From an uncultured virus (IMG/VR IMGVR_UViG_3300025010_000041) (lineage: Duplodnaviria > Heunggongvirae > Uroviricota > Caudoviricetes), in IMG/VR virus record IMGVR_UViG_3300025010_000041: a DNA stretch of 32,908 nt. The stretch is one strand, 5' to 3'. Positions within the stretch are counted from its first letter, which is position 1. The number at the start of each line of letters is the position of its first letter. A model generated the notes under the pieces. That model was not told where the DNA came from, did not search any database, and saw only the letters and a program-made list of their open reading frames with translations. Made by a program: the position numbers and the translations under genes. This document shows positions 2,023-21,069 of the stretch, piece after piece.

Positions 2023-2523
2023 ATGCTGCAAATGGACGCTAACCTACAGACAGTTTTTCTCTCTCAGTTCAACTTCGAGCGGTTCTCCGCTGACGTTTAT
2101 CAGGCAATGGCCGCCGCCCTGGACACGATCAACCTCGTGGGCTTCGCGGCCTATTTGCGTCACCGCGGCGAAGAAGAACGCACCCACGCACAAAAGTTCT
2201 CTGACCACCTCTCAGACCGGAATATCACCCCGGTCTTTGACGCGTTACCCGCCCAAGAGCTTCCGACCTGGACAGGCGCGCCGGACGCCGGAGCCGCTTG
2301 TTTCCGCAAAGCCCACGCTCATGAAGTGCTGGTTACAGAGCGAATCTATGCCCTGTACGAACTGTCCGAGGAAATCGGCGACCACCAGGCTTGCGAATTT
2401 CTGCGCTGGTTTATCGCCGAACAGTTGGAAGAACTGAAAAGCCTCGATGAGTGGCTGACCCGCTTCGATCTGGCGCGTGGCGACGGCGCGGCAGTCCTGC
2501 TTCTTGACAAGGAATTGCAATGA
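2023..2523 (+). CDS. ferritin (non-heme, FtnA-like)
   Basis: Ferroxidase-centre pattern E(RFSADV)Y, EEERTH, HE, EQLEE; GFAAYL and EFLRWFIAEQ typical of bacterial ferritin; AGGAG RBS before ATG 2023. Confidence 0.9.
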   Translation: MLQMDANLQTVFLSQFNFERFSADVYQAMAAALDTINLVGFAAYLRHRGEEERTHAQKFSDHLSDRNITPVFDALPAQELPTWTGAPDAGAACFRKAHAHEVLVTERIYALYELSEEIGDHQACEFLRWFIAEQLEELKSLDEWLTRFDLARGDGAAVLLLDKELQ

Positions 2524-3965
2524 CCCATACCGGCGTTATGGTGGCGTTTTTCTTACCTCCCGATCTGGCGGGTCGAATCGCCGCGCCGGGTGGCGAGCCT
2601 GCAAGCGACTTGCACGTTACCCTCGCTTACCTGGGCGAAAACGCAACCACCCGGCTTGACAAAGCCAGGCTGCTCTCTGTGTTAGGCGGGTTTGCCGCTT
2701 ACCAGTTCGAGATAGAGGGGCAGTTCAACGGTGTGGCGCAGTTTGTCAACGGCGAAGAACGGGCATTCGTGACGCTTTTAGACGCCCCCGCTCTCTCGAA
2801 ATTCCGGCAGCGATTGGTTGAGTGTCTTGAGCAAAACCGCATGGGAGTGGCATACGACCACGGATTTATTCCGCATGTCACGCTGGCCTACAATCAGGCC
2901 CCGGAATACACCGCTGTCGCGGCAGAGTTTGGCAAGCCGATCCTGTTTAGCGAAATTACACTCGCTTGGGGTGATGAACGGGTTACGTTCAAACTACAAG
3001 CGCAGCCGATCATTGAGGCCAAAGAAATCTCAACTACCCCGCCGCAGGCAGTTCGAGACGCCGCAAAGCGCGGCCTGGAATTGCGCGAGAAGTATGGACG
3101 CGGCGGGCTGTCTACGCAAGAGGCCGGCAAACAGGGGATTGGCAGCGGAGTTGCGAGGGCCGTCAGTCTGAGCAAGGGCCAGGCCCAAAGCATGAATACG
3201 ATCAAACGCATGAGTGCGTTTTTCAGCCGTCACGAAAAGAATAAAAACACCCCGCCCGAAAAAGGCAATGGCATGATCGCCTGGTTGATGTGGGGTGGCG
3301 ACCCCGGCAAAGAGTGGGCTGAGGGCTTATTGGCGAAGCGCAAAGAAGTCTCAACCACCCCAACCGGAGTTATGTTGACCGGGCCAGGGAGTCTATTTGG
3401 CGGCACGGCGCTTGCCAATACGATTAGCGCAACGATCTTGAAGCGCAAGCAATTGAGAGCATCCAAACGGACGGCCCCGTTTTCGCAGAGCAAAGAGATC
3501 AACGACTCTTACAAAGAGTTCACCGCGTCGGGCAAGTCTGCCGGTATTTACGTGTTCAAAGAGAATGGCACCTGGCGCTGGGTTACGTTTTCCAGCAACC
3601 CCTACCGCGACAGAGACCGCGAGATTGTCAGTCTGAAAGCTCTGGAAGTGGACGTTTCCAGAGCCGACGCCGATGGCAAGTTCGGCCCGTTGCGCTGGTG
3701 GCATGTGCCGAGGCTGGATTTGGGGGACTGTGATTTCAATATGATGCACGGGCGAATTTTGGTTGAAAGCGGTACATTCCGCACGCCCGAAATAGCAGAA
3801 GCAATCAAGGAGGTCGCTAACGATTTAGAAGTTTCTATCGGGTTTGTTCACCCCCCCTCAGAACCGGACGGTGACGGCGTGTTCCACACTATCCGCAGGT
3901 TTGAACGCTCCCTGTGTCCAAAAGGCCGGGTGAGCAATCTCTTTACCAGGTTCATGGTCGGCTAG
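2520..3965 (+). CDS. fusion: 2H phosphoesterase + unknown helical domain + putative prohead protease
   Basis: Two HxT motifs (LHVTLAY, PHVTLAY) in the first 160 aa; middle domain ending IAWLMWGGDPG; C-terminal RDRDREIV, PLRWWH, VSIGF, ERSL..SN motifs resembling HK97-type maturation proteases; directly upstream of scaffold and capsid. Confidence 0.7.
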   Translation: MTHTGVMVAFFLPPDLAGRIAAPGGEPASDLHVTLAYLGENATTRLDKARLLSVLGGFAAYQFEIEGQFNGVAQFVNGEERAFVTLLDAPALSKFRQRLVECLEQNRMGVAYDHGFIPHVTLAYNQAPEYTAVAAEFGKPILFSEITLAWGDERVTFKLQAQPIIEAKEISTTPPQAVRDAAKRGLELREKYGRGGLSTQEAGKQGIGSGVARAVSLSKGQAQSMNTIKRMSAFFSRHEKNKNTPPEKGNGMIAWLMWGGDPGKEWAEGLLAKRKEVSTTPTGVMLTGPGSLFGGTALANTISATILKRKQLRASKRTAPFSQSKEINDSYKEFTASGKSAGIYVFKENGTWRWVTFSSNPYRDRDREIVSLKALEVDVSRADADGKFGPLRWWHVPRLDLGDCDFNMMHGRILVESGTFRTPEIAEAIKEVANDLEVSIGFVHPPSEPDGDGVFHTIRRFERSLCPKGRVSNLFTRFMVG

Positions 3966-7793: not shown

Positions 7794-8345
7794 ATGACAA
7801 AAGCAAGCGACCTATCCCACGCATTCGGCTTTTTGAAGCAGGCAGAAGTATCTCTGCTGACCCGCCTGGCCGAAAGCCTACCCGACGGAGCCGTGTTTAT
7901 CAACGTTGGAGCCGGAGTGGGCACGTCTGCTCTGACCGTAGCCGAAGCGCGGCCCGATGTGAAGATTTACACCGTTGATATTTCCGAGGGCGGGCCGGAG
8001 GGCGGGCTTGAGAACGAGCGCAACGCATTCACTCACGCCGGACTGTCGGAAAGTCTACCAACGCAAGTATTGGGCGATTCGCGGGCAGTCGGTAGAGACT
8101 GGCAGTTCGAGAGCGCCGACCTGCTGATGATTGACGCCGATCATGCCTACGCTTCTTGCCGCGGCGACCTGGAAGTCTGGACGCCACACCTGAAAGCGGG
8201 CGGCGTGCTGCTGATCCATGACTACGAACCGAAAATATGGCCCGACGTGTTCAAAGCGACGGGCGATTTTATCCGCTCCCAGCCTGAAAGTTGGGAGTTT
8301 ATCGAAGTGCAACATACGCTGATTGCGTATAGGAGTAAGTCATGA
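7794..8345 (+). CDS. class I SAM-dependent methyltransferase (Methyltransf_24-like)
   Basis: INVGAGVGTS motif I, YTVD, GDS, DLLMIDADH, LKAGGVLLIHDY. Confidence 0.88.
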   Translation: MTKASDLSHAFGFLKQAEVSLLTRLAESLPDGAVFINVGAGVGTSALTVAEARPDVKIYTVDISEGGPEGGLENERNAFTHAGLSESLPTQVLGDSRAVGRDWQFESADLLMIDADHAYASCRGDLEVWTPHLKAGGVLLIHDYEPKIWPDVFKATGDFIRSQPESWEFIEVQHTLIAYRSKS

Positions 8346-9013
8346 AAATTCTAAAAACTGAGGGTGACGTAAAGCTGCCCGCCTCTGCTTATCTGGTAGT
8401 TGAGGATGCCGAAAAGCCGTCCACCTGGCACTTGCGCATTGGCGGCGAATCGGGCCTTCCTGACCCCGCTCACATGGGCGCAGCCTGGGCAGCACTGCAC
8501 GAGGGATACCGCGGCGAGAAGTACGCAGGCCCGCAAAAAGAGGAGGCCCTGGCGAAGTTGAAGAAACTCTACGCCGCGCTGAAACGCGACACCCCCGATG
8601 TTGAGAAGAAAGAGTATGACGGGTCATGGAGCGAACTCACCTGGAAAGAAGCGCCCTCGTTTGGTGAATGGCTGATCCGCTCCAAAGAAGATGCTCCGGT
8701 TGAACCAAACGAAGCCGTTGATCCCAAAGCCCTGCACTTACGCGTGGGACGGGCGCTGGCAAAGTTTGGCTTGAAGCCCTCGAAAGCCATTGACACCGGC
8801 GAACACGCCGAGGCGCACGGGTCGGCCTGGGTTGCACCCAAAACCGACTTCGAGAAGATCAAAACCGGCTTGTGGGACTTGGGTTATCGGCCCAAAGGCA
8901 AAGGCAAGTATTTCCGCGGCCCGGTCATGATCGAAACCGGACAGGACGCCGAGAACCTGTACCTGTATATCACAGACGACAACGGCCCTGCCCAAAAGAA
9001 GGCGGCGGCATGA
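8342..9013 (+). CDS. hypothetical two-domain protein
   Basis: 223-aa ORF with ATGA overlaps at both ends; the N-terminal PASAYLVV..PSTWHL..GAAWAAL..GYRG domain resembles modules I associate with phage head proteins, function unknown. Confidence 0.65.
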   Translation: MKILKTEGDVKLPASAYLVVEDAEKPSTWHLRIGGESGLPDPAHMGAAWAALHEGYRGEKYAGPQKEEALAKLKKLYAALKRDTPDVEKKEYDGSWSELTWKEAPSFGEWLIRSKEDAPVEPNEAVDPKALHLRVGRALAKFGLKPSKAIDTGEHAEAHGSAWVAPKTDFEKIKTGLWDLGYRPKGKGKYFRGPVMIETGQDAENLYLYITDDNGPAQKKAAA

Positions 9014-9636
9014 GTGTCTCGCGCAAACAGCAGGCGCTAAAGCGACGTCTTGCGATTGCGTTTGGCGCGCCACTGCTGCCCGATGAAATGCCAACTACGC
9101 CCCCGGTCAAAGCGAGGGCATTGGCGGCGGCGTTCGGCTACCTCTTTCCAGAGGAAGTCACGCTGCTGTCTGTCCTGGCCGAAAGCCTGCCCGCCGGAGC
9201 CGTGTTTGTCAACATTGGAGCGGGGTCTGGAACGAGTTCGCTTTGCGTGACAGAAACCAATCCGGCAGTGAAAGCCTACACAGTAGATATTTCTGACGGT
9301 GGCCCATTTGGCGGACTGGAAAACGAGCGCAACGCCTTCGCTGAAACCGGACTGCCGCTGCCGTCACAAATTTTAGGCGACTCGCACGCCGCGGGTAAAC
9401 TGTGGATCGGCGGCAAAGTAGACATGCTATTTGTGGACGCCGACCACAGCTTCGAGGGGTGCAACGGTGATATTGAGGCGTGGCACCCGCACGTTGTGGC
9501 GGGCGGGATCATTGTCTTTCATGATTACGAACGAGACTTCTGGCCCGAAGTGAAACAGGCCGTAGACGCCGCGGCTGAGCGGTATGGTTGGGAGTTGATT
9601 GAACAGCGCGGCACCATGATCGCATTCAGGAAGTGA
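9010..9636 (+). CDS. class I SAM-dependent methyltransferase, paralog of 7794..8345
   Basis: ATGA-coupled start 9010; VNIGAGSGTS, YTVDISDGGPFGGLENERNAF (nearly identical to paralog), FVDADH, GGIIVFHDY. Confidence 0.88.
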   Translation: MSVSRKQQALKRRLAIAFGAPLLPDEMPTTPPVKARALAAAFGYLFPEEVTLLSVLAESLPAGAVFVNIGAGSGTSSLCVTETNPAVKAYTVDISDGGPFGGLENERNAFAETGLPLPSQILGDSHAAGKLWIGGKVDMLFVDADHSFEGCNGDIEAWHPHVVAGGIIVFHDYERDFWPEVKQAVDAAAERYGWELIEQRGTMIAFRK

Positions 9637-9637
9637 C

Positions 9638-12571
9638 ATGAAAATCTACATCGAACCGACGCCGGGGAATGCCCCGCCGAGCAACGGGATCGGGCGCGTT
9701 GTTCACGCCCAATTTGAACACCTGCCAAAGTTAGGGATTGAGATCGTCAAAACCTACCGCAAAGCAGACGTGATCGCTTCTCACGTGGAGCAGTTCAATT
9801 TGCCACGCGTAGACGTGCTGCACTCCCACGGTCTCTATTTTGACGATATTCCCAACGCCGGTTATGACGCCTGGCAGTACACCGCCAATGCCCACATTGC
9901 CCAAGCTGTGCGCAGAGCTAAGATTCTAACCGTCCCTGCCCCCTGGGTTGCGATGCCGTTCAAGCGAGATATGCACCTAAGCCCGTGGATCGTCCCGCAT
10001 GGAATTGACTTTGCCGATTGGAACCCCGGCGAGAATCGGGGCTATCTATTCTGGAATAAAGGCCGCGCCAATGACGTCTGTGACCCCGTCCCGGCATGGG
10101 AGTTGGCAGAAGCAGGTCTGCCGGTGGTATCGACGTTCAACCCATTGAACCGTCCAACCGGAAAGTTGAAAGTGGTCGGGGCACAATCGTTCGAGAAGAT
10201 GCGCCTGCTGATCCAATCGGCGGATATTTACCTCGCCACTACCCCCGAAACTTTCGGGATCGGCACCCTCGAAGCAATGGCCTGTGGCTTGCCCGTCCTG
10301 GGCTACCGTTGGGCAGGAACCGCCGATATCGTTCAGCACATGGAAACCGGGTATCTGGTTGAGCCGGGCGACGTCAACGGGCTAAAAGTCGGCTACCAGT
10401 GGTTGAAAGCCAACCGCGAGGCCGTGGGCGCGGCGGCCAGAGAGTTCGCTTCGCGCTTCGATTGGCCCAATGTGATCGGGGAGTACGCCAAAGTCTATCA
10501 AGCGGCCATGTCCATTCCAGACGAAAAGACCGTCGCGGTTGGGATTATCTCTTACAACTATGCGCAATATTTACCGAAAGCGATAGAGTCTGTCCTGGCC
10601 CAATCGCGCGCGCCAAACGAGATTGTGGTGATAGATGACGGGTCAACCGATAACACCGCCGAAGTCGTTTCCCGCTATTCTGACCGGGTGCGTTATATCC
10701 GGCAGGAAAACCAGGGGGTTGCCGCGGCCCGCATGAACGCAATTGCGGCGACCAAGTCAGACTTTTTGACCCTGCTTGACGCCGACGATTGGTTGGAGCC
10801 GTCATTTGTGCTGGCAATGGAGCGGGCGCTTGTGGCTGACCGTGGACTTGGGATCGCTTACGCCGGGTTTATGAGTTGCAACAGCGAGGGCAAAAAGAGC
10901 GGTACGGTCTACGGAACGCCGTTCGATTGGGAAATCCAGGCGCGTGGTGGTGTGCCCCCGGCGACGGCAGTTCCTACGCCGTCCGCTTGCATGTTCAGGC
11001 GCAGAATGTTCGAGCGGGCCGGCAGTAAAATCTATCAAGAGTTCGCACCCGGCGAGGATGCTGAGTTTTGGGCACGCGGGCTGTCTACCGGCTTCACGGC
11101 GCAACTGGTGACAAGCGAGGCGCTGACCAATTACCGGATGCACGCTGAGGGCGCAAGTAAAAAGCGCAAGTACGTTCGGGTGGACACCTGGCTGCCGTGG
11201 ATGCGTGACAAAATCTACCCGTTCGCTGCCCCGGTCAAGTCACAGATACGCGTACGCTCTTACATGCTGCCGCGCGTATCCGTGATTATTCCAGTTGGGC
11301 CGGGGCACGAGAAACTCTTGCTTGACGCGGTGCGCTCTTTAGAAGGGCAAAGCGAACGACTGTGGGAGTTGATCGTGGTCGCCGATACCGACCTGCCTGA
11401 ATCGGATATACGCACCGTTTACCCGTTCGCAACGGTTGTACCGGGGCGCAGGTTAGGCGCTGGCGCGGCCCGTAATGACGGGTTGAAAGAGGCCAGAGGG
11501 ACATTCGTCGTCTTTCTTGACGCCGATGATTACCTGCACCCGGAGGCGCTTGAGAAATTACTTGCCGCCTATGACCAAAGCGGGTATGTCTACTCGGACT
11601 GGTACGCCGTCACCGGAGCGTCCGCCGAAGTGAAACAGTTGAAAGAGTACGATCCTAACAGTGACAATCTTCAACACGCCGTGACCGTACTCATGCCAAC
11701 GGTCTGGGCCAAGCGGCTGAAATTTGACGAATCTCTCCCGGCGTGGGAGGATGTGGAATATTACAACCAGGCGCGCTCTCTTGGCTTCTGCGGGAAGCGT
11801 GTAGCCGAACCTCTGTTATACTATCGGTTAGAGACTGGGAAGCGCAGAGCCGCGGCCCTGAAAGAGAAAAAGAAACTTGCCGCCTATATTGAGAAGCGGC
11901 AAAAAGCGAGGCATATTATGGCTTGTGGATCATGCCCCTCCCCCGCGGGCGGGGTGATTATGAAAGCAAAGAAGGAGTTGAATCCAATGGGAAACCAAAC
12001 CGAACCAATCGCCTCCCCGCAAGACGGGGTGGTCAGAATGATATACACCGGCGGTGGGCGCGGCGTGCGCACCTATATCGCCAACAAACGCACCTACCGC
12101 GCCGGCGACTCTGACGGGAGCCGAGCTATCAATGCTCACCCCGCCGACGTTGAACGACTGCGGGCGCTGGGCTTCGAGGTGGTGGCGCGTCCACTGCCCC
12201 AGGCGCAGCCGTTGGTGACGGCCCCTATCCCCGCACCTGAACCCGCTCTCGCGCCCGCGCCGATGCCCACTCCGGCAGTTGAAAAGACGGTGGTGACGGC
12301 CAAGCCGATGGCGACCAATGCCCACGTTCCCGCACCGGCAGTGACCCCGGTCAAGAAGCAAGCGCCGAAACCCGCCGATCCGCTGCCCATACCGGAGGAA
12401 GTGACGGAAATCCCGCCTATGCCTGAGACGGTGCGCGGACTGCGGGCGGCCATTGCTGCCGGAGTTGGCGAAAGCGTGATCCGCTCATGGGAATACGATG
12501 AGCGCGCCAAAGGCGATAGCGCCCGCAAAGAGTACCTGAAAATCTTACGTCAAGCCAAACAGGGTGCGTAA
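9638..12571 (+). CDS. multidomain glycosyltransferase (GT4 + GT2 + GT2 + Pro/Ala-rich C-terminus)
   Basis: ETFGIGTLEAMACGLPV (GT-B/GT4); YN..YLPKAIESVLAQ..VIDDGSTD..LLDADD (GT2); VSVIIPV..AARN.G..FLDADD (second GT2). Confidence 0.92.
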   Translation: MKIYIEPTPGNAPPSNGIGRVVHAQFEHLPKLGIEIVKTYRKADVIASHVEQFNLPRVDVLHSHGLYFDDIPNAGYDAWQYTANAHIAQAVRRAKILTVPAPWVAMPFKRDMHLSPWIVPHGIDFADWNPGENRGYLFWNKGRANDVCDPVPAWELAEAGLPVVSTFNPLNRPTGKLKVVGAQSFEKMRLLIQSADIYLATTPETFGIGTLEAMACGLPVLGYRWAGTADIVQHMETGYLVEPGDVNGLKVGYQWLKANREAVGAAAREFASRFDWPNVIGEYAKVYQAAMSIPDEKTVAVGIISYNYAQYLPKAIESVLAQSRAPNEIVVIDDGSTDNTAEVVSRYSDRVRYIRQENQGVAAARMNAIAATKSDFLTLLDADDWLEPSFVLAMERALVADRGLGIAYAGFMSCNSEGKKSGTVYGTPFDWEIQARGGVPPATAVPTPSACMFRRRMFERAGSKIYQEFAPGEDAEFWARGLSTGFTAQLVTSEALTNYRMHAEGASKKRKYVRVDTWLPWMRDKIYPFAAPVKSQIRVRSYMLPRVSVIIPVGPGHEKLLLDAVRSLEGQSERLWELIVVADTDLPESDIRTVYPFATVVPGRRLGAGAARNDGLKEARGTFVVFLDADDYLHPEALEKLLAAYDQSGYVYSDWYAVTGASAEVKQLKEYDPNSDNLQHAVTVLMPTVWAKRLKFDESLPAWEDVEYYNQARSLGFCGKRVAEPLLYYRLETGKRRAAALKEKKKLAAYIEKRQKARHIMACGSCPSPAGGVIMKAKKELNPMGNQTEPIASPQDGVVRMIYTGGGRGVRTYIANKRTYRAGDSDGSRAINAHPADVERLRALGFEVVARPLPQAQPLVTAPIPAPEPALAPAPMPTPAVEKTVVTAKPMATNAHVPAPAVTPVKKQAPKPADPLPIPEEVTEIPPMPETVRGLRAAIAAGVGESVIRSWEYDERAKGDSARKEYLKILRQAKQGA

Positions 12572-12574
12572 ACC

Positions 12575-13231
12575 GTGACCAACCTATTCATCACCGGCTA
12601 CCCGCGCAGCGGGAATACCTGGACTAACCGGCTGCTCTCGGATATTCTGGATTCGCCGCTGCAAAACACCCCTGATATGGAGCCGATCTACTACGGCGAA
12701 ACGGGCGGCAAATACGTCATTCTCAAGCGCCACTCGAAGGTGCGAGAGGGGCTGACGCTCTTTGTCTACCGTGACCCGCGTGACGTGGCGGTATCTCGAC
12801 TGTTTTACTACCGACTGTCCGGTCTGACCACCGCGATTGACGGCATGCTGGGAATCAATGGTGACACCGTGGACGCGGTCGGGTCAGTGATTGGCGAGTA
12901 CAACGGGTTCGTTCGCACCTGGTACAACCGGGCCGATGCGCAGATTCGCTATGAAGATTTGCACGCCTCCCCGGTTGAAACTCTCTCGCTGGCAATCTTG
13001 GGCCTGACCGGCGAAACGATTGACCCCGACAAAATCAGGCTGGCGGTAGAGCGGCAATCGTTCGCAGCGACAGTTGAGCGCAACGGGCCGGAACACGCCA
13101 TGCGGCGCGGTCAAGTCGGTGACTGGCGCAACCACTTCAACCGCGAGAACAGCGAACACATCACCCGTCTGTTTGGCGAGTTGATGCTTGAACAGGGCTA
13201 TATTGACAGCCTGGATTGGTGGCAGAAATGA
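12575..13231 (+). CDS. PAPS-dependent sulfotransferase
   Basis: GYPRSGNTW (5'-PSB loop), YRDPRDVAVS (3'-PB), RYEDL, RRGQVGDWRNHF. Confidence 0.92.
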   Translation: MTNLFITGYPRSGNTWTNRLLSDILDSPLQNTPDMEPIYYGETGGKYVILKRHSKVREGLTLFVYRDPRDVAVSRLFYYRLSGLTTAIDGMLGINGDTVDAVGSVIGEYNGFVRTWYNRADAQIRYEDLHASPVETLSLAILGLTGETIDPDKIRLAVERQSFAATVERNGPEHAMRRGQVGDWRNHFNRENSEHITRLFGELMLEQGYIDSLDWWQK

Positions 13232-18869: not shown

Positions 18870-19081
18870 TCTACGAGGAAGTCAACGGCATAATCATTGG
18901 CGGCGACACCTGGCCCTACGAATTTTGGATTACCCACCCTACCGGACACGTTTTGGCGGGTCTGCATGATCGGGTTGCACGCGGCCACTTTTCCTCAGAC
19001 GCCGAAGCGATTGACTGGTTCAAGAGTAACTACCCGGAGCAGTTTGCGGCGGGGGTAGAAATGCGAGTGTTTGACAGATGA
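18866..19081 (+). CDS. hypothetical protein
   Basis: ATGA-coupled, GGTGAGG upstream, 71 aa. Confidence 0.65.
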   Translation: MIYEEVNGIIIGGDTWPYEFWITHPTGHVLAGLHDRVARGHFSSDAEAIDWFKSNYPEQFAAGVEMRVFDR

Positions 19082-19247
19082 CGCGACACAGCGAAATTTA
19101 CCCCCTGGATGCCCACAGGAAGCCCGTAGCGACGTTTTACCGTGAAATAGGTAATTCCCCCATGAGTGAAGCGCAGTCAATCGCCAAAATCGGCTTGCGG
19201 GCAATCGGCGTTCTTGCTGGTAAACTCGCATACGCTATTCAAGAAAG

Positions 19248-19258
19248 TGTGGTAGAAT
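19248..19258 (+). promoter_or_regulatory. extended -10 promoter of the Y RNA cluster
   Basis: TGTGGTAGAAT; expected +1 (about 19265) coincides with the first base of Y RNA 1. Confidence 0.7.
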
Positions 19259-19264
19259 ATCTTT

Positions 19265-19328
19265 GTCGGCGGCGAATGAAACGGTTACTTCTTTTGGTGA
19301 AAAACACCGTTCCAGTCAGTTCCCCGAC
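19265..19328 (+). ncRNA. Y RNA-like 1 (minimal)
   Basis: 5' GTCGGCGGCGAA pairs with 3' TTCCCCGAC leaving bulged C residues (Ro60-binding-like stem); inner stem AACGGT/ACCGTT; TACTT motif; upstream of the TROVE gene. Confidence 0.75.
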
Positions 19329-19349
19329 GAATATTGCACCTTGAAATCA

Positions 19350-19432
19350 TTGGCGGCGAATGTAGCAGATACTTAGGCTCATATCCTGAATTGGCCCCGT
19401 GCCAATCAATTCTGCTGCAACTTGTTCCCCAA
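19350..19432 (+). ncRNA. Y RNA-like 2
   Basis: TTGGCGGCGAA / TTCCCCAA closing stem; TGTAGCAGA/TCTGCTGCA inner stem; TACTT then AGG-CTCATAT-CCT hairpin and TTGGC/GCCAA hairpin. Confidence 0.78.
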
Positions 19433-19446
19433 GTAGTTTATAAACA

Positions 19447-19577
19447 ATCGGCGGCGATAGAAACAGTTACTTCGGCTGTTAACCGGGTTGTTGCAGGTTC
19501 GAGTCCTGTCAGAACGGGAAACCGTTTTGTAGCTCAATTGGTAGAGCACCTACGTTCTGTTTCGCATGTTCCCCGAT
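19447..19577 (+). ncRNA. Y RNA-like 3, YrlA-type with permuted tRNA domain
   Basis: ATCGGCGGCGA / TTCCCCGAT closing stem; GAAACAG/CTGTTTC; T arm GCAGG-TTCGAGT-CCTGT precedes acceptor stem CAGAACGG-GAAA-CCGTTTTG and D arm GCTC-AATTGGTA-GAGC. Confidence 0.88.
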
Positions 19578-19591
19578 GAATGCAATCAAAG

Positions 19592-19627
19592 AAGCCTGGG
19601 GTTTGTCTCTCAGGCTTTTATTTTTTT
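19592..19627 (+). terminator. intrinsic terminator after Y RNA cluster
   Basis: AAGCCTG ... CAGGCTT stem followed by TTATTTTTTT. Confidence 0.8.
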
Positions 19628-19644
19628 AGACAGTGGAGGCACAA

Positions 19645-21069
19645 ATGTCAAGTACGAATGTCAAACGACCTGATACCCGTTTCTCAAATGATCGGCTGGC
19701 CGGCGGATACGGCGCGCTGGCGGCCACGCAAGACTCTCTGGCGCTCTTGCGCCGGGCGGTTCTCGCCAATCTGTTGTGGGAAAATATCGCCTACGAGGAC
19801 GGCGAGTCTGTAGTGGCGAATATCACCCGGCTTGTGCCGCTGTGCAAGCCCGAAGATGTGGCGACCCTGGCAATCGAGGCCCGCACCCAGCAGAAGTTGC
19901 GCCACGTGCCGTTGTTCCTGGCGCTGCAAATGGCCGAACACAAAACCCACCTGCCGCTTGTCGGGAGTCTGTTACCGAAGATTTGTCTGCGGCCCGATGA
20001 TCTGACTGAGTTCGTTGCGCTCTACTGGAAAGAGAAAAAGCGCCCGCTGGCAAAGCAGATCAAGATCGGCCTGGCGGCGGCTTTCCAGAAGTTTGACGCT
20101 TACCAGTTGGGCAAGTACAAAGCCGATGGCAAGACCGTCTCTCTGCGCGACGTGATGTTCCTGGTTCACCCGACCCCTGCGAACGACGCTCAGGCGGGAG
20201 TCTGGAAACAGTTTGCCGATCAGACTCTACCCGCTCCCGATACCTGGGAAGTGGCGCTCTCCACCGGCAAAGACAAGAAAGCCACCTGGGAGCGTCTGAT
20301 TTTGGAAAACAAGTTAGGCGGCTTGGCGTTCCTGCGCAACTTGAAGAACATGCAAGCGGCGGGAGTTTCTCGCACGACTCTGGCGCATGGGTTTACTCAT
20401 GTCAAAACCGGCTGGCTCTTACCGCTGGACTTTTTGAAGGCAGTCAAAATGGCTCCCGAATATGTGCGCGAGATCGAAACTATGATGCTGAATACGCTTC
20501 GGAATATGCCCAAGCTGACCGGGCGCACGATCATGGTGGTGGACGTTTCCGGCTCTATGGCGAGTAAGATTTCAGAGAAAAGCGATTTTACTCGCATGGA
20601 CGCGGCCCTGGCAATGGCGATGTTAGCCGCCGAAGTCTGCGAATCGGTTGCAATTTACGCCACCGCCGGCAGTGATAGAGACCGCCAGCACAACACGGCG
20701 AAAGTTTCCGCCTATCACGGTTTTGGGTTGATCGAGTCCATTATGGGCGTTGGGAAGCAATTGGGCGGCGGCGGTATCTTTACTCGCCAGTGCCTGGAAT
20801 ATATCAAAGAGCAAGAGAAAGAGACCCCAGACCGGGTTATTATTTTCTCCGACTCTCAGGACTGCGATTTCCCTGATAAGCGCACGCCGCGCCCGATTGG
20901 TGAGCGCAACTATATCTGTGACGTTTCAGCCAATGCGCACGGGGTCGCTTACAAGAGCGTTTGGTCGGCTGAGATTTCGGGCTTTAGCGAACACTTCCTG
21001 AGCTTCATCATGGCCCTGGAGGGCTTGCGGGTAGAAGTTGGAGCAGACGACGAATTGCAAACTCAATAG
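19645..21069 (+). CDS. Ro60/Rsr-like TROVE + vWA domain RNA-binding protein
   Basis: GGAGG RBS before ATG 19645; TROVE motifs LRHVP, RPDDLTE, FDAYQLGKY, LRDVMFLVHP, PDTWE, AFLRNL; vWA MIDAS VDVSGSM, GGGIF, IIFSDSQ. Confidence 0.92.
   Translation: MSSTNVKRPDTRFSNDRLAGGYGALAATQDSLALLRRAVLANLLWENIAYEDGESVVANITRLVPLCKPEDVATLAIEARTQQKLRHVPLFLALQMAEHKTHLPLVGSLLPKICLRPDDLTEFVALYWKEKKRPLAKQIKIGLAAAFQKFDAYQLGKYKADGKTVSLRDVMFLVHPTPANDAQAGVWKQFADQTLPAPDTWEVALSTGKDKKATWERLILENKLGGLAFLRNLKNMQAAGVSRTTLAHGFTHVKTGWLLPLDFLKAVKMAPEYVREIETMMLNTLRNMPKLTGRTIMVVDVSGSMASKISEKSDFTRMDAALAMAMLAAEVCESVAIYATAGSDRDRQHNTAKVSAYHGFGLIESIMGVGKQLGGGGIFTRQCLEYIKEQEKETPDRVIIFSDSQDCDFPDKRTPRPIGERNYICDVSANAHGVAYKSVWSAEISGFSEHFLSFIMALEGLRVEVGADDELQTQ

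Follow-up and report, generated by a model that had tools for sequence, protein, structure and literature searches.

Do the Y RNAs encoded beside a viral Ro60 gene carry copies of transfer RNA (tRNA) anticodon loops, and if so, what keeps these loops in place? This question is raised by a 32,908-nucleotide (nt) stretch of DNA from an uncultured virus of the Caudoviricetes (IMG/VR record IMGVR_UViG_3300025010_000041), here called the window, in which three Y RNA units, Y1, Y2 and Y3, precede a TROVE open reading frame (ORF), the cluster ending 67 nt before it (Table 1). The initial annotation had claimed that in each unit a conserved TACTT is followed by 3 nt, a 7-nt loop and 3 nt, and that the loops display Thr-like, Met-like and Asn-like anticodons in the same register. 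These strings can be read directly from the sequence, since each unit has UACUU followed by a 3 + 7 + 3 nt pattern, and all three loops have a T at loop position 2 (tRNA position 33) and a purine at loop position 6 (tRNA position 37). The 3-nt flanks pair fully in Y2 and Y3, but at only two of three positions in Y1. As described below, the interpretation of this hairpin as a mimic of an anticodon held for Y3 and Y2, based on register, covariation and loop grammar, and was not upheld in this form for Y1.

The genes in the window are phage-like and include those for a tape measure protein, an HNH endonuclease, a minor-head-like protein and further phage families, and the homologs of the TROVE protein are named 60 kDa SS-A/Ro in their sources. 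Y1, Y2 and Y3 share a Ro60-type basal stem and have in common a 5' strand of the type GGCGGCGA, a UUACUU or AUACUU motif, and a 3' GUUCCCC strand. In passages of Chen et al. (2014; PMC4201824), GNCGAAN0-1G in the 5' strand is described as a motif of bacterial Y RNAs. This motif is present as GGCGAAUG in Y1 (19271-78) and Y2 (19355-62), and with one mismatch as GGCGAUAG in Y3 (19453-60), and in most relatives of these units it is replaced by GGUGNAG. The annotation of the units as Ro60-associated Y RNAs was upheld by the adjoining TROVE gene, a partial match to the YrlA family, and a family model that matches all three. The locus as a whole is probably best explained as a Ro60 gene of a phage that is accompanied by three clustered Y RNAs of its own.

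When tRNA numbering was counted back from the T loop, the Y3 hairpin was found to precede the T stem by exactly 7 nt (2 + 5). G42 and G43, directly behind the hairpin, can pair with C28 (19550) and C27 (19549), U44 with A26 (19548), and A15:U48 can form the Levitt pair. In this numbering the hairpin after the linker is predicted to occupy nt 29-41, the distal portion of a tRNA anticodon arm, and the arm would be complete but composite, with three local pairs and the loop, and the two top pairs, 27:43 and 28:42, supplied by the D-arm strand. It follows that the predicted Ro60-binding stem enters the arm between nt 28 and 29, creating a three-way junction. Because the anticodon arm and 5-nt variable loop are combined with a T arm, a closed acceptor-like stem and a D arm, Y3 reads as a near-complete, circularly permuted tRNA mimic. 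These last three elements are absent from Y1 and Y2 and were found in Y3 only. At the gathering score (69 for RF02553, YrlA), an Rfam scan of the window gave no match, and ARAGORN reported 0 tRNAs for the window. At a relaxed threshold, RF02553 matched the Y3 core (19486-19550, model positions 24-84 of 114) with 40.3 bits and an E value of 2.4e-7. The Rfam tRNA model reached 14.3 bits (E value 8.1); the acceptor stem of Y3 is closed by GAAA, and a cloverleaf with a chargeable end was not found in it.

Table 1. Coordinates of the features discussed in the text (positions in the window unless a locus handle is given; MFE, minimum free energy; R1, family covariance model)
Feature	Position	Strand	Evidence and remarks
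Candidate extended -10-like element TGGTAGAAT	19250-19258	+	7 nt upstream of Y1; read from sequence
Y1, minimal Y RNA: Ro60-type stem and apical loop	19265-19329	+	R1 37.1 bits, E value 2.8e-7; MFE fold
Y1 strings after the linker	19285-19303	+	UUACUU 19285-90 (TACTT 19286-19290), CTT 19291-93, TTGGTGA 19294-19300, AAA 19301-03
Y2, short Y RNA	19349-19434	+	R1 35.5 bits, E value 7.3e-7; both hairpins in MFE fold
Y2 linker and probable anticodon-type hairpin	19369-19387	+	AUACUU 19369-74 (TACTT 19370-74), AGG 19375-77, loop CTCATAT 19378-84, CCT 19385-87
Y2 second hairpin AUUGGC-CCCGU-GCCAAU	19390-19406	+	MFE fold
Y3, YrlA-class permuted tRNA-like Y RNA	19447-19578	+	R1 109.6 bits; RF02553 partial match
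Y3 linker UUACUU	19467-19472	+	TACTT 19468-72; motif in all three units (AUACUU in Y2)
Y3, very probable anticodon-arm mimic	19473-19485	+	CGG nt 29-31 (19473-75), CUGUUAA nt 32-38 (CTGTTAA, 19476-82), CCG nt 39-41 (19483-85); Asn GUU-like loop
Y3 G42, G43 and variable loop nt 44-48 UUGUU (19488-92)	19486-19492	+	Covariation, Levitt pair
Y3 T arm GCAGG-UUCGAGU-CCUGU	19493-19509	+	Helix 5, 99.8% paired
Y3 closed acceptor-like stem CAGAACGG-GAAA-CCGUUUUG	19510-19529	+	Relaxed Rfam match; compensatory variant
Y3 U8, A9, D arm GCUC-AAUUGGUA-GAGC, A26, C27, C28	19530-19550	+	Rfam match, covariation
Intrinsic-terminator-like hairpin and T run	19590-19628	+	3' of the Y cluster; similar layout in L108/L111
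Ro60 (TROVE) gene	19645-21069	+	474 amino acids; GGAGG 6 nt upstream; Pfam TROVE 2.1e-18; phrog_850 6e-36
YrlA units called as tRNA by ARAGORN	L002:2058-2134, L026:1892-1966, L047:2138-2207, L065:1969-2037, L066:549-617, L067:213-287, L094:2297-2372		
Y-type scaffolds enclosing tRNA-Gln(UUG)	L041:1891-2024, L029:685-818		
Y-type scaffolds enclosing complete tRNA-Lys or tRNA-Arg, spacer and second D arm	L053:3925-4132, L028:3922-4122		

A single-protein scan of viral contigs returned no relative, and an alignment of Ro60 homologs retrieved 63 viral loci, 39 loci from genomes (metagenome-assembled genomes, MAGs) and 8 metagenome loci. The sole close locus, L104, shows no difference from the window in the 411 aligned bases and therefore adds nothing to a short-range comparison. 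The nearest cluster of the same layout, L108/L111, encodes a Ro60 that is 57-60% identical, together with a short unit carrying a CUUGAAA hairpin, a minimal unit, and a YrlA unit carrying AUGCUAA. A covariance model, R1, was built from 18 YrlA-like sequences and gave 188 matches in 100 sources, including Y1, Y2 and Y3, and 17 more in the remaining 11 sources. From the 150 best R1 matches, 125 distinct units carrying the linker motif were kept as the survey set, with TTACTT as linker in 82, ATACTT in 15, CTACTT in 8, TTTCAT in 8, and other variants in 12. Six relatives scored 38.4-50.1 bits against RF02553, below its gathering score.

Choosing hairpins by energy was abandoned, because the stems extended into the loop, as would also be expected with real tRNAs, and the hairpin was instead tested in a fixed register. 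A 3-base-pair (bp) stem straight after the UU with a 7-nt loop was present in 38 of the 125 units, compared to 5.6 in shuffled sequences, and any other loop length from 3 to 12 in the same register occurred in 1-12 units. For counts per class, offsets of 1-3 were allowed and 2000 shuffles were made. The hairpin was found in 28 of 41 YrlA-type units (shuffle mean 9.4), 18 of them with U33 and a purine at position 37 (R37) (1.2 expected), and in 12 of 27 units with a T arm only (5.5), 11 of them with U33 and R37 (0.8). Among the 57 short units it was found in 22 (8.5), with U33 and R37 in 12 (1.2), although hairpin-bearing short units may be slightly over-sampled, as the covariance model contained the hairpin. 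In every class, the observed U33/R37 count was reached by 0 of the 2000 shuffles. When the YrlA-type homologs were anchored on the T loop, the inner 3 bp fell exactly on the tRNA positions in 19 of 33, and among these 19, U33 was present in 16 and R37 in 17.

The junction pairs covary as well. Among 39 YrlA-type units, pair 27:43 is CG in 21, AU in 6, GC in 3, UA in 2 and UG in 1, and pair 28:42 is UA in 15, CG in 12, GC in 5, UG in 2 and AU in 1. Position 26:44 is mostly G.A, A.G or A-U in these RNAs, as in tRNA. The Levitt pair 15:48 is G:C in 24, A:U in 8 and another combination in 1 of 33 units, and since it holds in 32 of the 33, the 5-nt stretch is a true variable loop. Over the whole structure 93.3% of the alignment cells were paired, compared to 61.6% after shuffling, and in the hairpin helix 84.9%, with changes on both sides in all 3 pairs, whereby the alignment was fitted to the model and leans toward the fitted structure. 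Strain variants in groundwater and soil runs fall at 19411, 19446, 19509-19528 and 19581 and leave the Y2 and Y3 loops unchanged (four runs); 19511 A>G and 19528 T>C are compensatory in the acceptor-like stem of Y3, and 19509 T>C converts a G.U into a G-C pair in its T stem. We regard the structural interpretation of the hairpin as an anticodon arm as very probable.

The loops themselves follow the rules of tRNA. In 62 hairpins, U33 was present in 47, R37 in 50, both in 41, and A38 in 46 (binomial p values of 5e-15, 1e-6 and 5e-15 for U33, R37 and A38, respectively), and positions 34-36 are the variable part of the loops. Among the 51 distinct loops, G37 follows G36 in 10 of 11 cases (Fisher p value 1.4e-5), and no such coupling was found for other adjacent loop positions. 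The 87 real tRNAs that ARAGORN identified in the same loci have G37 after G36 in 13 of 15 cases and U33 in 82. Thus, U33, R37, A38 and the G36-G37 coupling, all features of real tRNAs, are kept in the hairpin of this family around a variable triplet. The initial annotation had proposed that related clusters be compared for loops that vary around a constant U33/R37, and this is what the relatives display: 7-nt U33/R37 loops were kept with a varying middle triplet, and L108/L111 carries loops other than those in the window. Within a locus the loops differ in 10 out of 10 loci holding at least two such hairpins. TrmD makes m1G37 on loops with G36-G37, and Tgt needs U33-G34-U35, a sequence that is present in the Y3 loop. 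A long variable arm is characteristic of tRNA-Ser and tRNA-Leu in bacteria, and at least six units combine Ser- or Leu-type loops (CUUGAAA, AUGCUAA, CUGCUCA, CUCAGGA, CUUAGGC) with a body whose variable loop is short, so that they do not represent copies of tRNA halves. In 7 YrlA units, ARAGORN takes the 5' part for a tRNA (Pro, Ser, Lys, Ser and others; Table 1). In phage and MAG records, YrlA-type RNAs have likely given rise to false tRNA annotations, and tRNA finders should be used with this warning in mind.

Y2 appears to carry, within the family pattern, an anticodon-type hairpin without a tRNA body. In its MFE fold this hairpin is lengthened to a 5-bp stem (UUAGG-CUCAUAU-CCUGA, 19373-19389), and it is followed by a second hairpin. 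Short units in other loci carry hairpins of the same anticodon-like type. This local 5-bp form is likely in short units such as Y2. For the YrlA-type units, a local hairpin of 5 bp, in which the linker would contribute its invariant UU, was rejected as the main form, since this pairing is possible in 17 of the 39 units, compared to 32 of the 39 in which both junction pairs, 27:43 and 28:42, form.

In Y1, the stem flagged as weak in the initial annotation indeed forms two of its three pairs, with a C.A mismatch. The apical motif UUACUUCUUUUGGUGAAA (19285-19305) recurs in the distant loci L018 (at 3986) and L049 (at 4847), and with an insertion in L067 (at 80), and motif CUUUUGGUGAAA of Y1 is likewise found in L018 and L049, with an insertion variant in L067. 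Because it recurs in three distant loci, this looks like a conserved motif and not like a free 'anticodon', and together with the incomplete stem it makes Y1 the weak case for an anticodon mimic. What speaks against a conserved motif is that two low-depth strain variants alter loop positions 32 and 35 (19294 T>A, 19297 G>C) and position 36 (19298 T>C), and both keep U33 and G37 intact. The UGGUG in the apical motif of Y1 would be complementary to a CACCA 3' end of tRNA.

Y3 resembles YrlA (RF02553), as described in parts of PMC4201824 and bioRxiv 10.1101/312249, in its location next to a Ro60 gene, its 5' GNCGAA-type motif, its permuted T arm, closed acceptor and D arm, and its Levitt pair. 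The difference is that the Salmonella-type Rfam consensus runs from CUA straight into a 4-bp stem without a hairpin, whereas in Y3 a 3-bp/7-nt anticodon-type hairpin is inserted at this point, giving a three-way junction. In line with this, sections of bioRxiv 10.1101/312249 report that Salmonella YrlA is without an anticodon loop and that most YrlAs have a conserved UA in the variable loop. Y1 and Y2 are comparable to Salmonella YrlB and other short bacterial Y RNAs in being short, lacking a tRNA body, and being encoded together with a YrlA-type RNA and Ro60, but Y2 and 11 other short units have an anticodon-type hairpin after UACUU. For Yrn1 of Deinococcus radiodurans, a passage of Chen et al. 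(PMC4201824) models a possible 'anticodon arm' with a 5-bp stem; there the loop is 6 nt and the T and D arms have another orientation, whereas the loop in the window family is 7 nt with tRNA grammar. With permuted tRNA genes and tandem tRNA transcripts, Y3 shares the order 3' half, closed acceptor stem, 5' half, aligning to tRNA-Asn and then to tRNA-Trp, but it lacks signs of processing to tRNA, and its break lies inside the anticodon stem (28/29), where the predicted Ro60-binding stem is located. A full-text literature search found no statement of an anticodon loop in YrlA-type RNAs or of a Y RNA acting as nuclease decoy, although the figures and supplements of PMC4201824 may show these loops. 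What is new here is that YrlA-class Y RNAs with a complete and diversified anticodon arm exist, well beyond this window. The published view of YrlA-type RNAs is one of elbow mimicry only, without an anticodon loop; a widespread subfamily with a complete arm narrows the search for their effector to proteins that read anticodon loops.

How might such an arm have arisen and been retained? We propose that the hairpin would descend from the anticodon arm of the first tRNA in a tandem pair, following the dimeric-tRNA origin model, and that its loop would be kept by selection because an effector of the Ro60 ribonucleoprotein (RNP) reads the anticodon loop. The likeliest action would be that of a Ro60-stabilized competitor or bait for enzymes that recognize anticodon loops, with host anticodon nucleases as first and tRNA-modifying or repair enzymes as second candidates; the nucleases are the most attractive because of the phage setting. 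A possible link to tRNA damage is that RtcB adjoins Ro60 in 2 of the 20 loci examined. We give selection on the loop an even chance, and consider the putative role as nuclease decoy doubtful. Related ideas can be found in the literature. Hughes et al. (2020) suggest in a passage of PMC7790460 that YrlA might competitively inhibit an anticodon nuclease, and van den Berg et al. (2023; PMC10264068) propose that phage tRNAs serve to resist host anticodon nucleases. The Y RNAs resemble the latter in being phage-encoded anticodon loops, putatively under the same pressure from VapC-, PrrC- or colicin-type tRNases, but the phage tRNAs described there are decoding replacements for cut host tRNAs, whereas the Y RNAs are not chargeable and are linked to Ro60. 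In the widest form of our proposal, which we put forward tentatively and hold to be rather unlikely, Ro60 phages and bacteria would keep diversifiable, Ro60-stabilized anticodon stem-loops, some on a tRNA-shaped body and some bare, each copying the loop of a particular tRNA, as putative decoys or cleavage-triggered sensors against host anticodon nucleases. In that case, the Y scaffold would serve as an all-purpose handle by which any part of a tRNA could be made into a Ro60 RNP. If the proposal is correct, Tgt is expected to act on the U33-G34-U35 loop of Y3 and TrmD on the G36-G37 loops, and loop-matched anticodon nucleases are expected to cut these Y RNAs or to be inhibited by them.

Several points weigh against this interpretation. 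The proposed function is wholly inferred, and neither a domain search of the window nor the neighborhoods of 20 loci revealed a nuclease or defense gene linked to the cluster. A consistent protein partner beside Ro60 was not found in these 20 loci either. According to a passage of PMC7790460, Salmonella YrlA is not cut by a DNA-damage-induced anticodon nuclease, although this bears weakly on the matter, since that RNA lacks such a loop. With regard to structure, Y1 fits the anticodon-hairpin pattern poorly, 15 of the 62 loops are without U33, several of which (AGGAACT, AAACTTT and TAACTAA, for example) probably reflect chance pairing or belong to other elements, and 14 of the 33 T-loop-anchored homologs do not have the hairpin in the exact register, some being off by one nt and others having none. 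Nearest-neighbor energies do not single out the proposed Y3 fold (-38.6 kcal/mol) from a fold with the local 5-bp hairpin (-40.3), one without hairpin (-35.3) and the MFE fold (-41.9), and the z-scores of the three units range from -1.1 to -1.9. The surveyed units are related and not independent, and the statistical tests ignore phylogeny. Finally, repeated gene conversion with tRNA genes could maintain tRNA-like loops without selection.

This last point is at the heart of the main rival explanation, in which the hairpin is a relic, either the leftover anticodon arm of the first tRNA or an arm refreshed by recombination with tRNA genes. The hairpin would then have no anticodon-specific role, and only the elbow, formed by the T and D arms, and the Ro60 stem would be functional. 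The dimeric-tRNA origin model is in print (Sim and Wolin, 2018, as cited in a part of bioRxiv 10.1101/312249), and the kinship of Y3 to tRNA is close. In a blastn comparison, 19473-19548 was 81.6% identical to mycobacteriophage Gladiator, the match starting at nt ~28 of tRNA-Asn(GTT), running through nt 72 at the end of this gene and across the spacer, and taking in nt 1-26 of tRNA-Trp, and 19473-19485 of Y3 is identical to the loop and inner stem of the Gladiator tRNA-Asn(GTT). Many groundwater and soil metagenome contigs match 19471-19508 with 2-8 differences and continue as bacterial tRNA-Asn-like genes, in which the match is preceded by a D arm and followed by an acceptor strand with CCA; as they run on as ordinary tRNA genes, the Y3 module is tRNA-Asn-like from the anticodon arm through the T arm. 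A relic would further agree with the existence of Y scaffolds that still enclose whole tRNAs, with the functioning of Salmonella-type YrlA without the hairpin, and with the homologs mentioned above that miss it in the exact register. However, while the Ro60 proteins are only ~50-60% identical, positions 33, 37 and 38 have stayed fixed, the stem covaries, and positions 34-36 are free. This argues against a relic, since under neutral decay every position of the loop would be expected to blur to the same extent. The coupling between G36 and G37 has persisted as well, the Ser- and Leu-type loops sit on bodies from which they cannot simply have been copied as tRNA halves, and the U33/R37 hairpin also occurs in excess in short Y RNAs that have no tRNA body. 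We therefore regard a relic that is maintained by exchange with tRNA genes as an unlikely explanation, though one to be taken seriously.

Y-type scaffolds (5' GUGGUG...UUACUU, 3' ...UUCCC) that enclose a complete cloverleaf tRNA were found in four loci (Table 1). They resemble intermediates of the dimeric-tRNA origin, or else pre-tRNAs whose leader and trailer form a predicted Ro60-binding stem, and such tRNA-enclosing and tRNA-like units offer intermediates for the published origin model.

The same scaffolds, with their tRNA-Gln, or tRNA-Lys or tRNA-Arg and second D arm, also suit a second rival explanation, in which the Y RNA is a Ro60 handle for tRNA-derived cargo. The loop would then recruit tRNA modification, repair (RtcB) or processing enzymes, or the ribosomal decoding site, and Ro60 with any bound exonuclease would be brought to tRNA metabolism, rather than a nuclease being blocked. 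Parts of PMC4201824 report that YrlA is modified by DusA and TruB, and that YrlA of Mycobacterium smegmatis is cut by RNase P and gains CCA. The loops obey the determinants of TrmD and Tgt mentioned above, and RtcB adjoins the cluster in 2 of the 20 loci examined. On the other hand, the remaining 18 loci are without RtcB, a conserved enzyme neighbor was not found, and Y3 offers no acceptor end, so that we consider a tether for cargo quite improbable. The two RtcB RNA ligase genes adjoining Ro60 and Y RNAs are located at L091:988-2415 and L056:570-1622.

The hairpin probably corresponds to the 'V' stem-loop of many YrlA RNAs in the passages of Chen et al. (2014; PMC4201824), where it is less conserved, lies just upstream of the T arm and is preceded by a conserved UA. 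The last rival follows their equation of the V region with the variable arm of class II tRNAs and takes the Y stem as the anticodon stem, but it was rejected on position, based on the junction pairs and the T-loop-anchored register, as the hairpin lies 5' of the nucleotides that pair with 27-28 and is followed by a 5-nt variable loop with a covarying Levitt pair, while a true variable arm would lie 3' of nt 43-45, and variable arms do not have 7-nt U33/R37 loops, which makes this explanation highly improbable. We thus place the hairpin at nt 29-41, on the strength of register, covariation of 27:43 and 28:42, and loop grammar, rather than at the variable arm as published.

Upstream of the Y cluster, a consensus sigma-70 scan found no two-hexamer promoter. 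The extended -10-like element TGGTAGAAT is a possible promoter of the cluster, to judge from its sequence, and the clusters of L108/L111 and L003/L065 are likewise preceded by TGnTATAAT or TTGACA-N17-TAATAT elements. An ORF of 88 codons (19078-19344, + strand), which starts at the stop codon of the preceding gene in an ATGA overlap, spans this promoter-like element and all of Y1, reflecting either an overlap of a gene with Y1 or a non-coding 3' part of the ORF. Among the relatives, L066 has two tandem TROVE genes with YrlA units accompanying each, and in L026 the Y RNAs are separated from the Ro60 gene by approximately six direct repeats of the type AAUGGAGAAUAGCGUUCGUUCCCAGG (2040-2450), each ending in a Y-RNA-like 3' GUUCCC motif.

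Elsewhere in the window, 2520-3965 (+ strand) encodes a 481-amino-acid protein with an N-terminal 2H phosphoesterase domain (2_5_RNA_ligase2, 1.3e-9), weak matches to LigT and Acb1 below their cut-offs, and matches to phrog 'RNA ligase' families, and this protein could have a role in RNA end healing or in the degradation of cyclic nucleotides. Two Methyltransf_24 proteins, a 977-amino-acid multi-domain glycosyltransferase and a sulfotransferase are encoded at 7794-13231 (+ strand), a region that appears to be an auxiliary surface-modification block of the phage.

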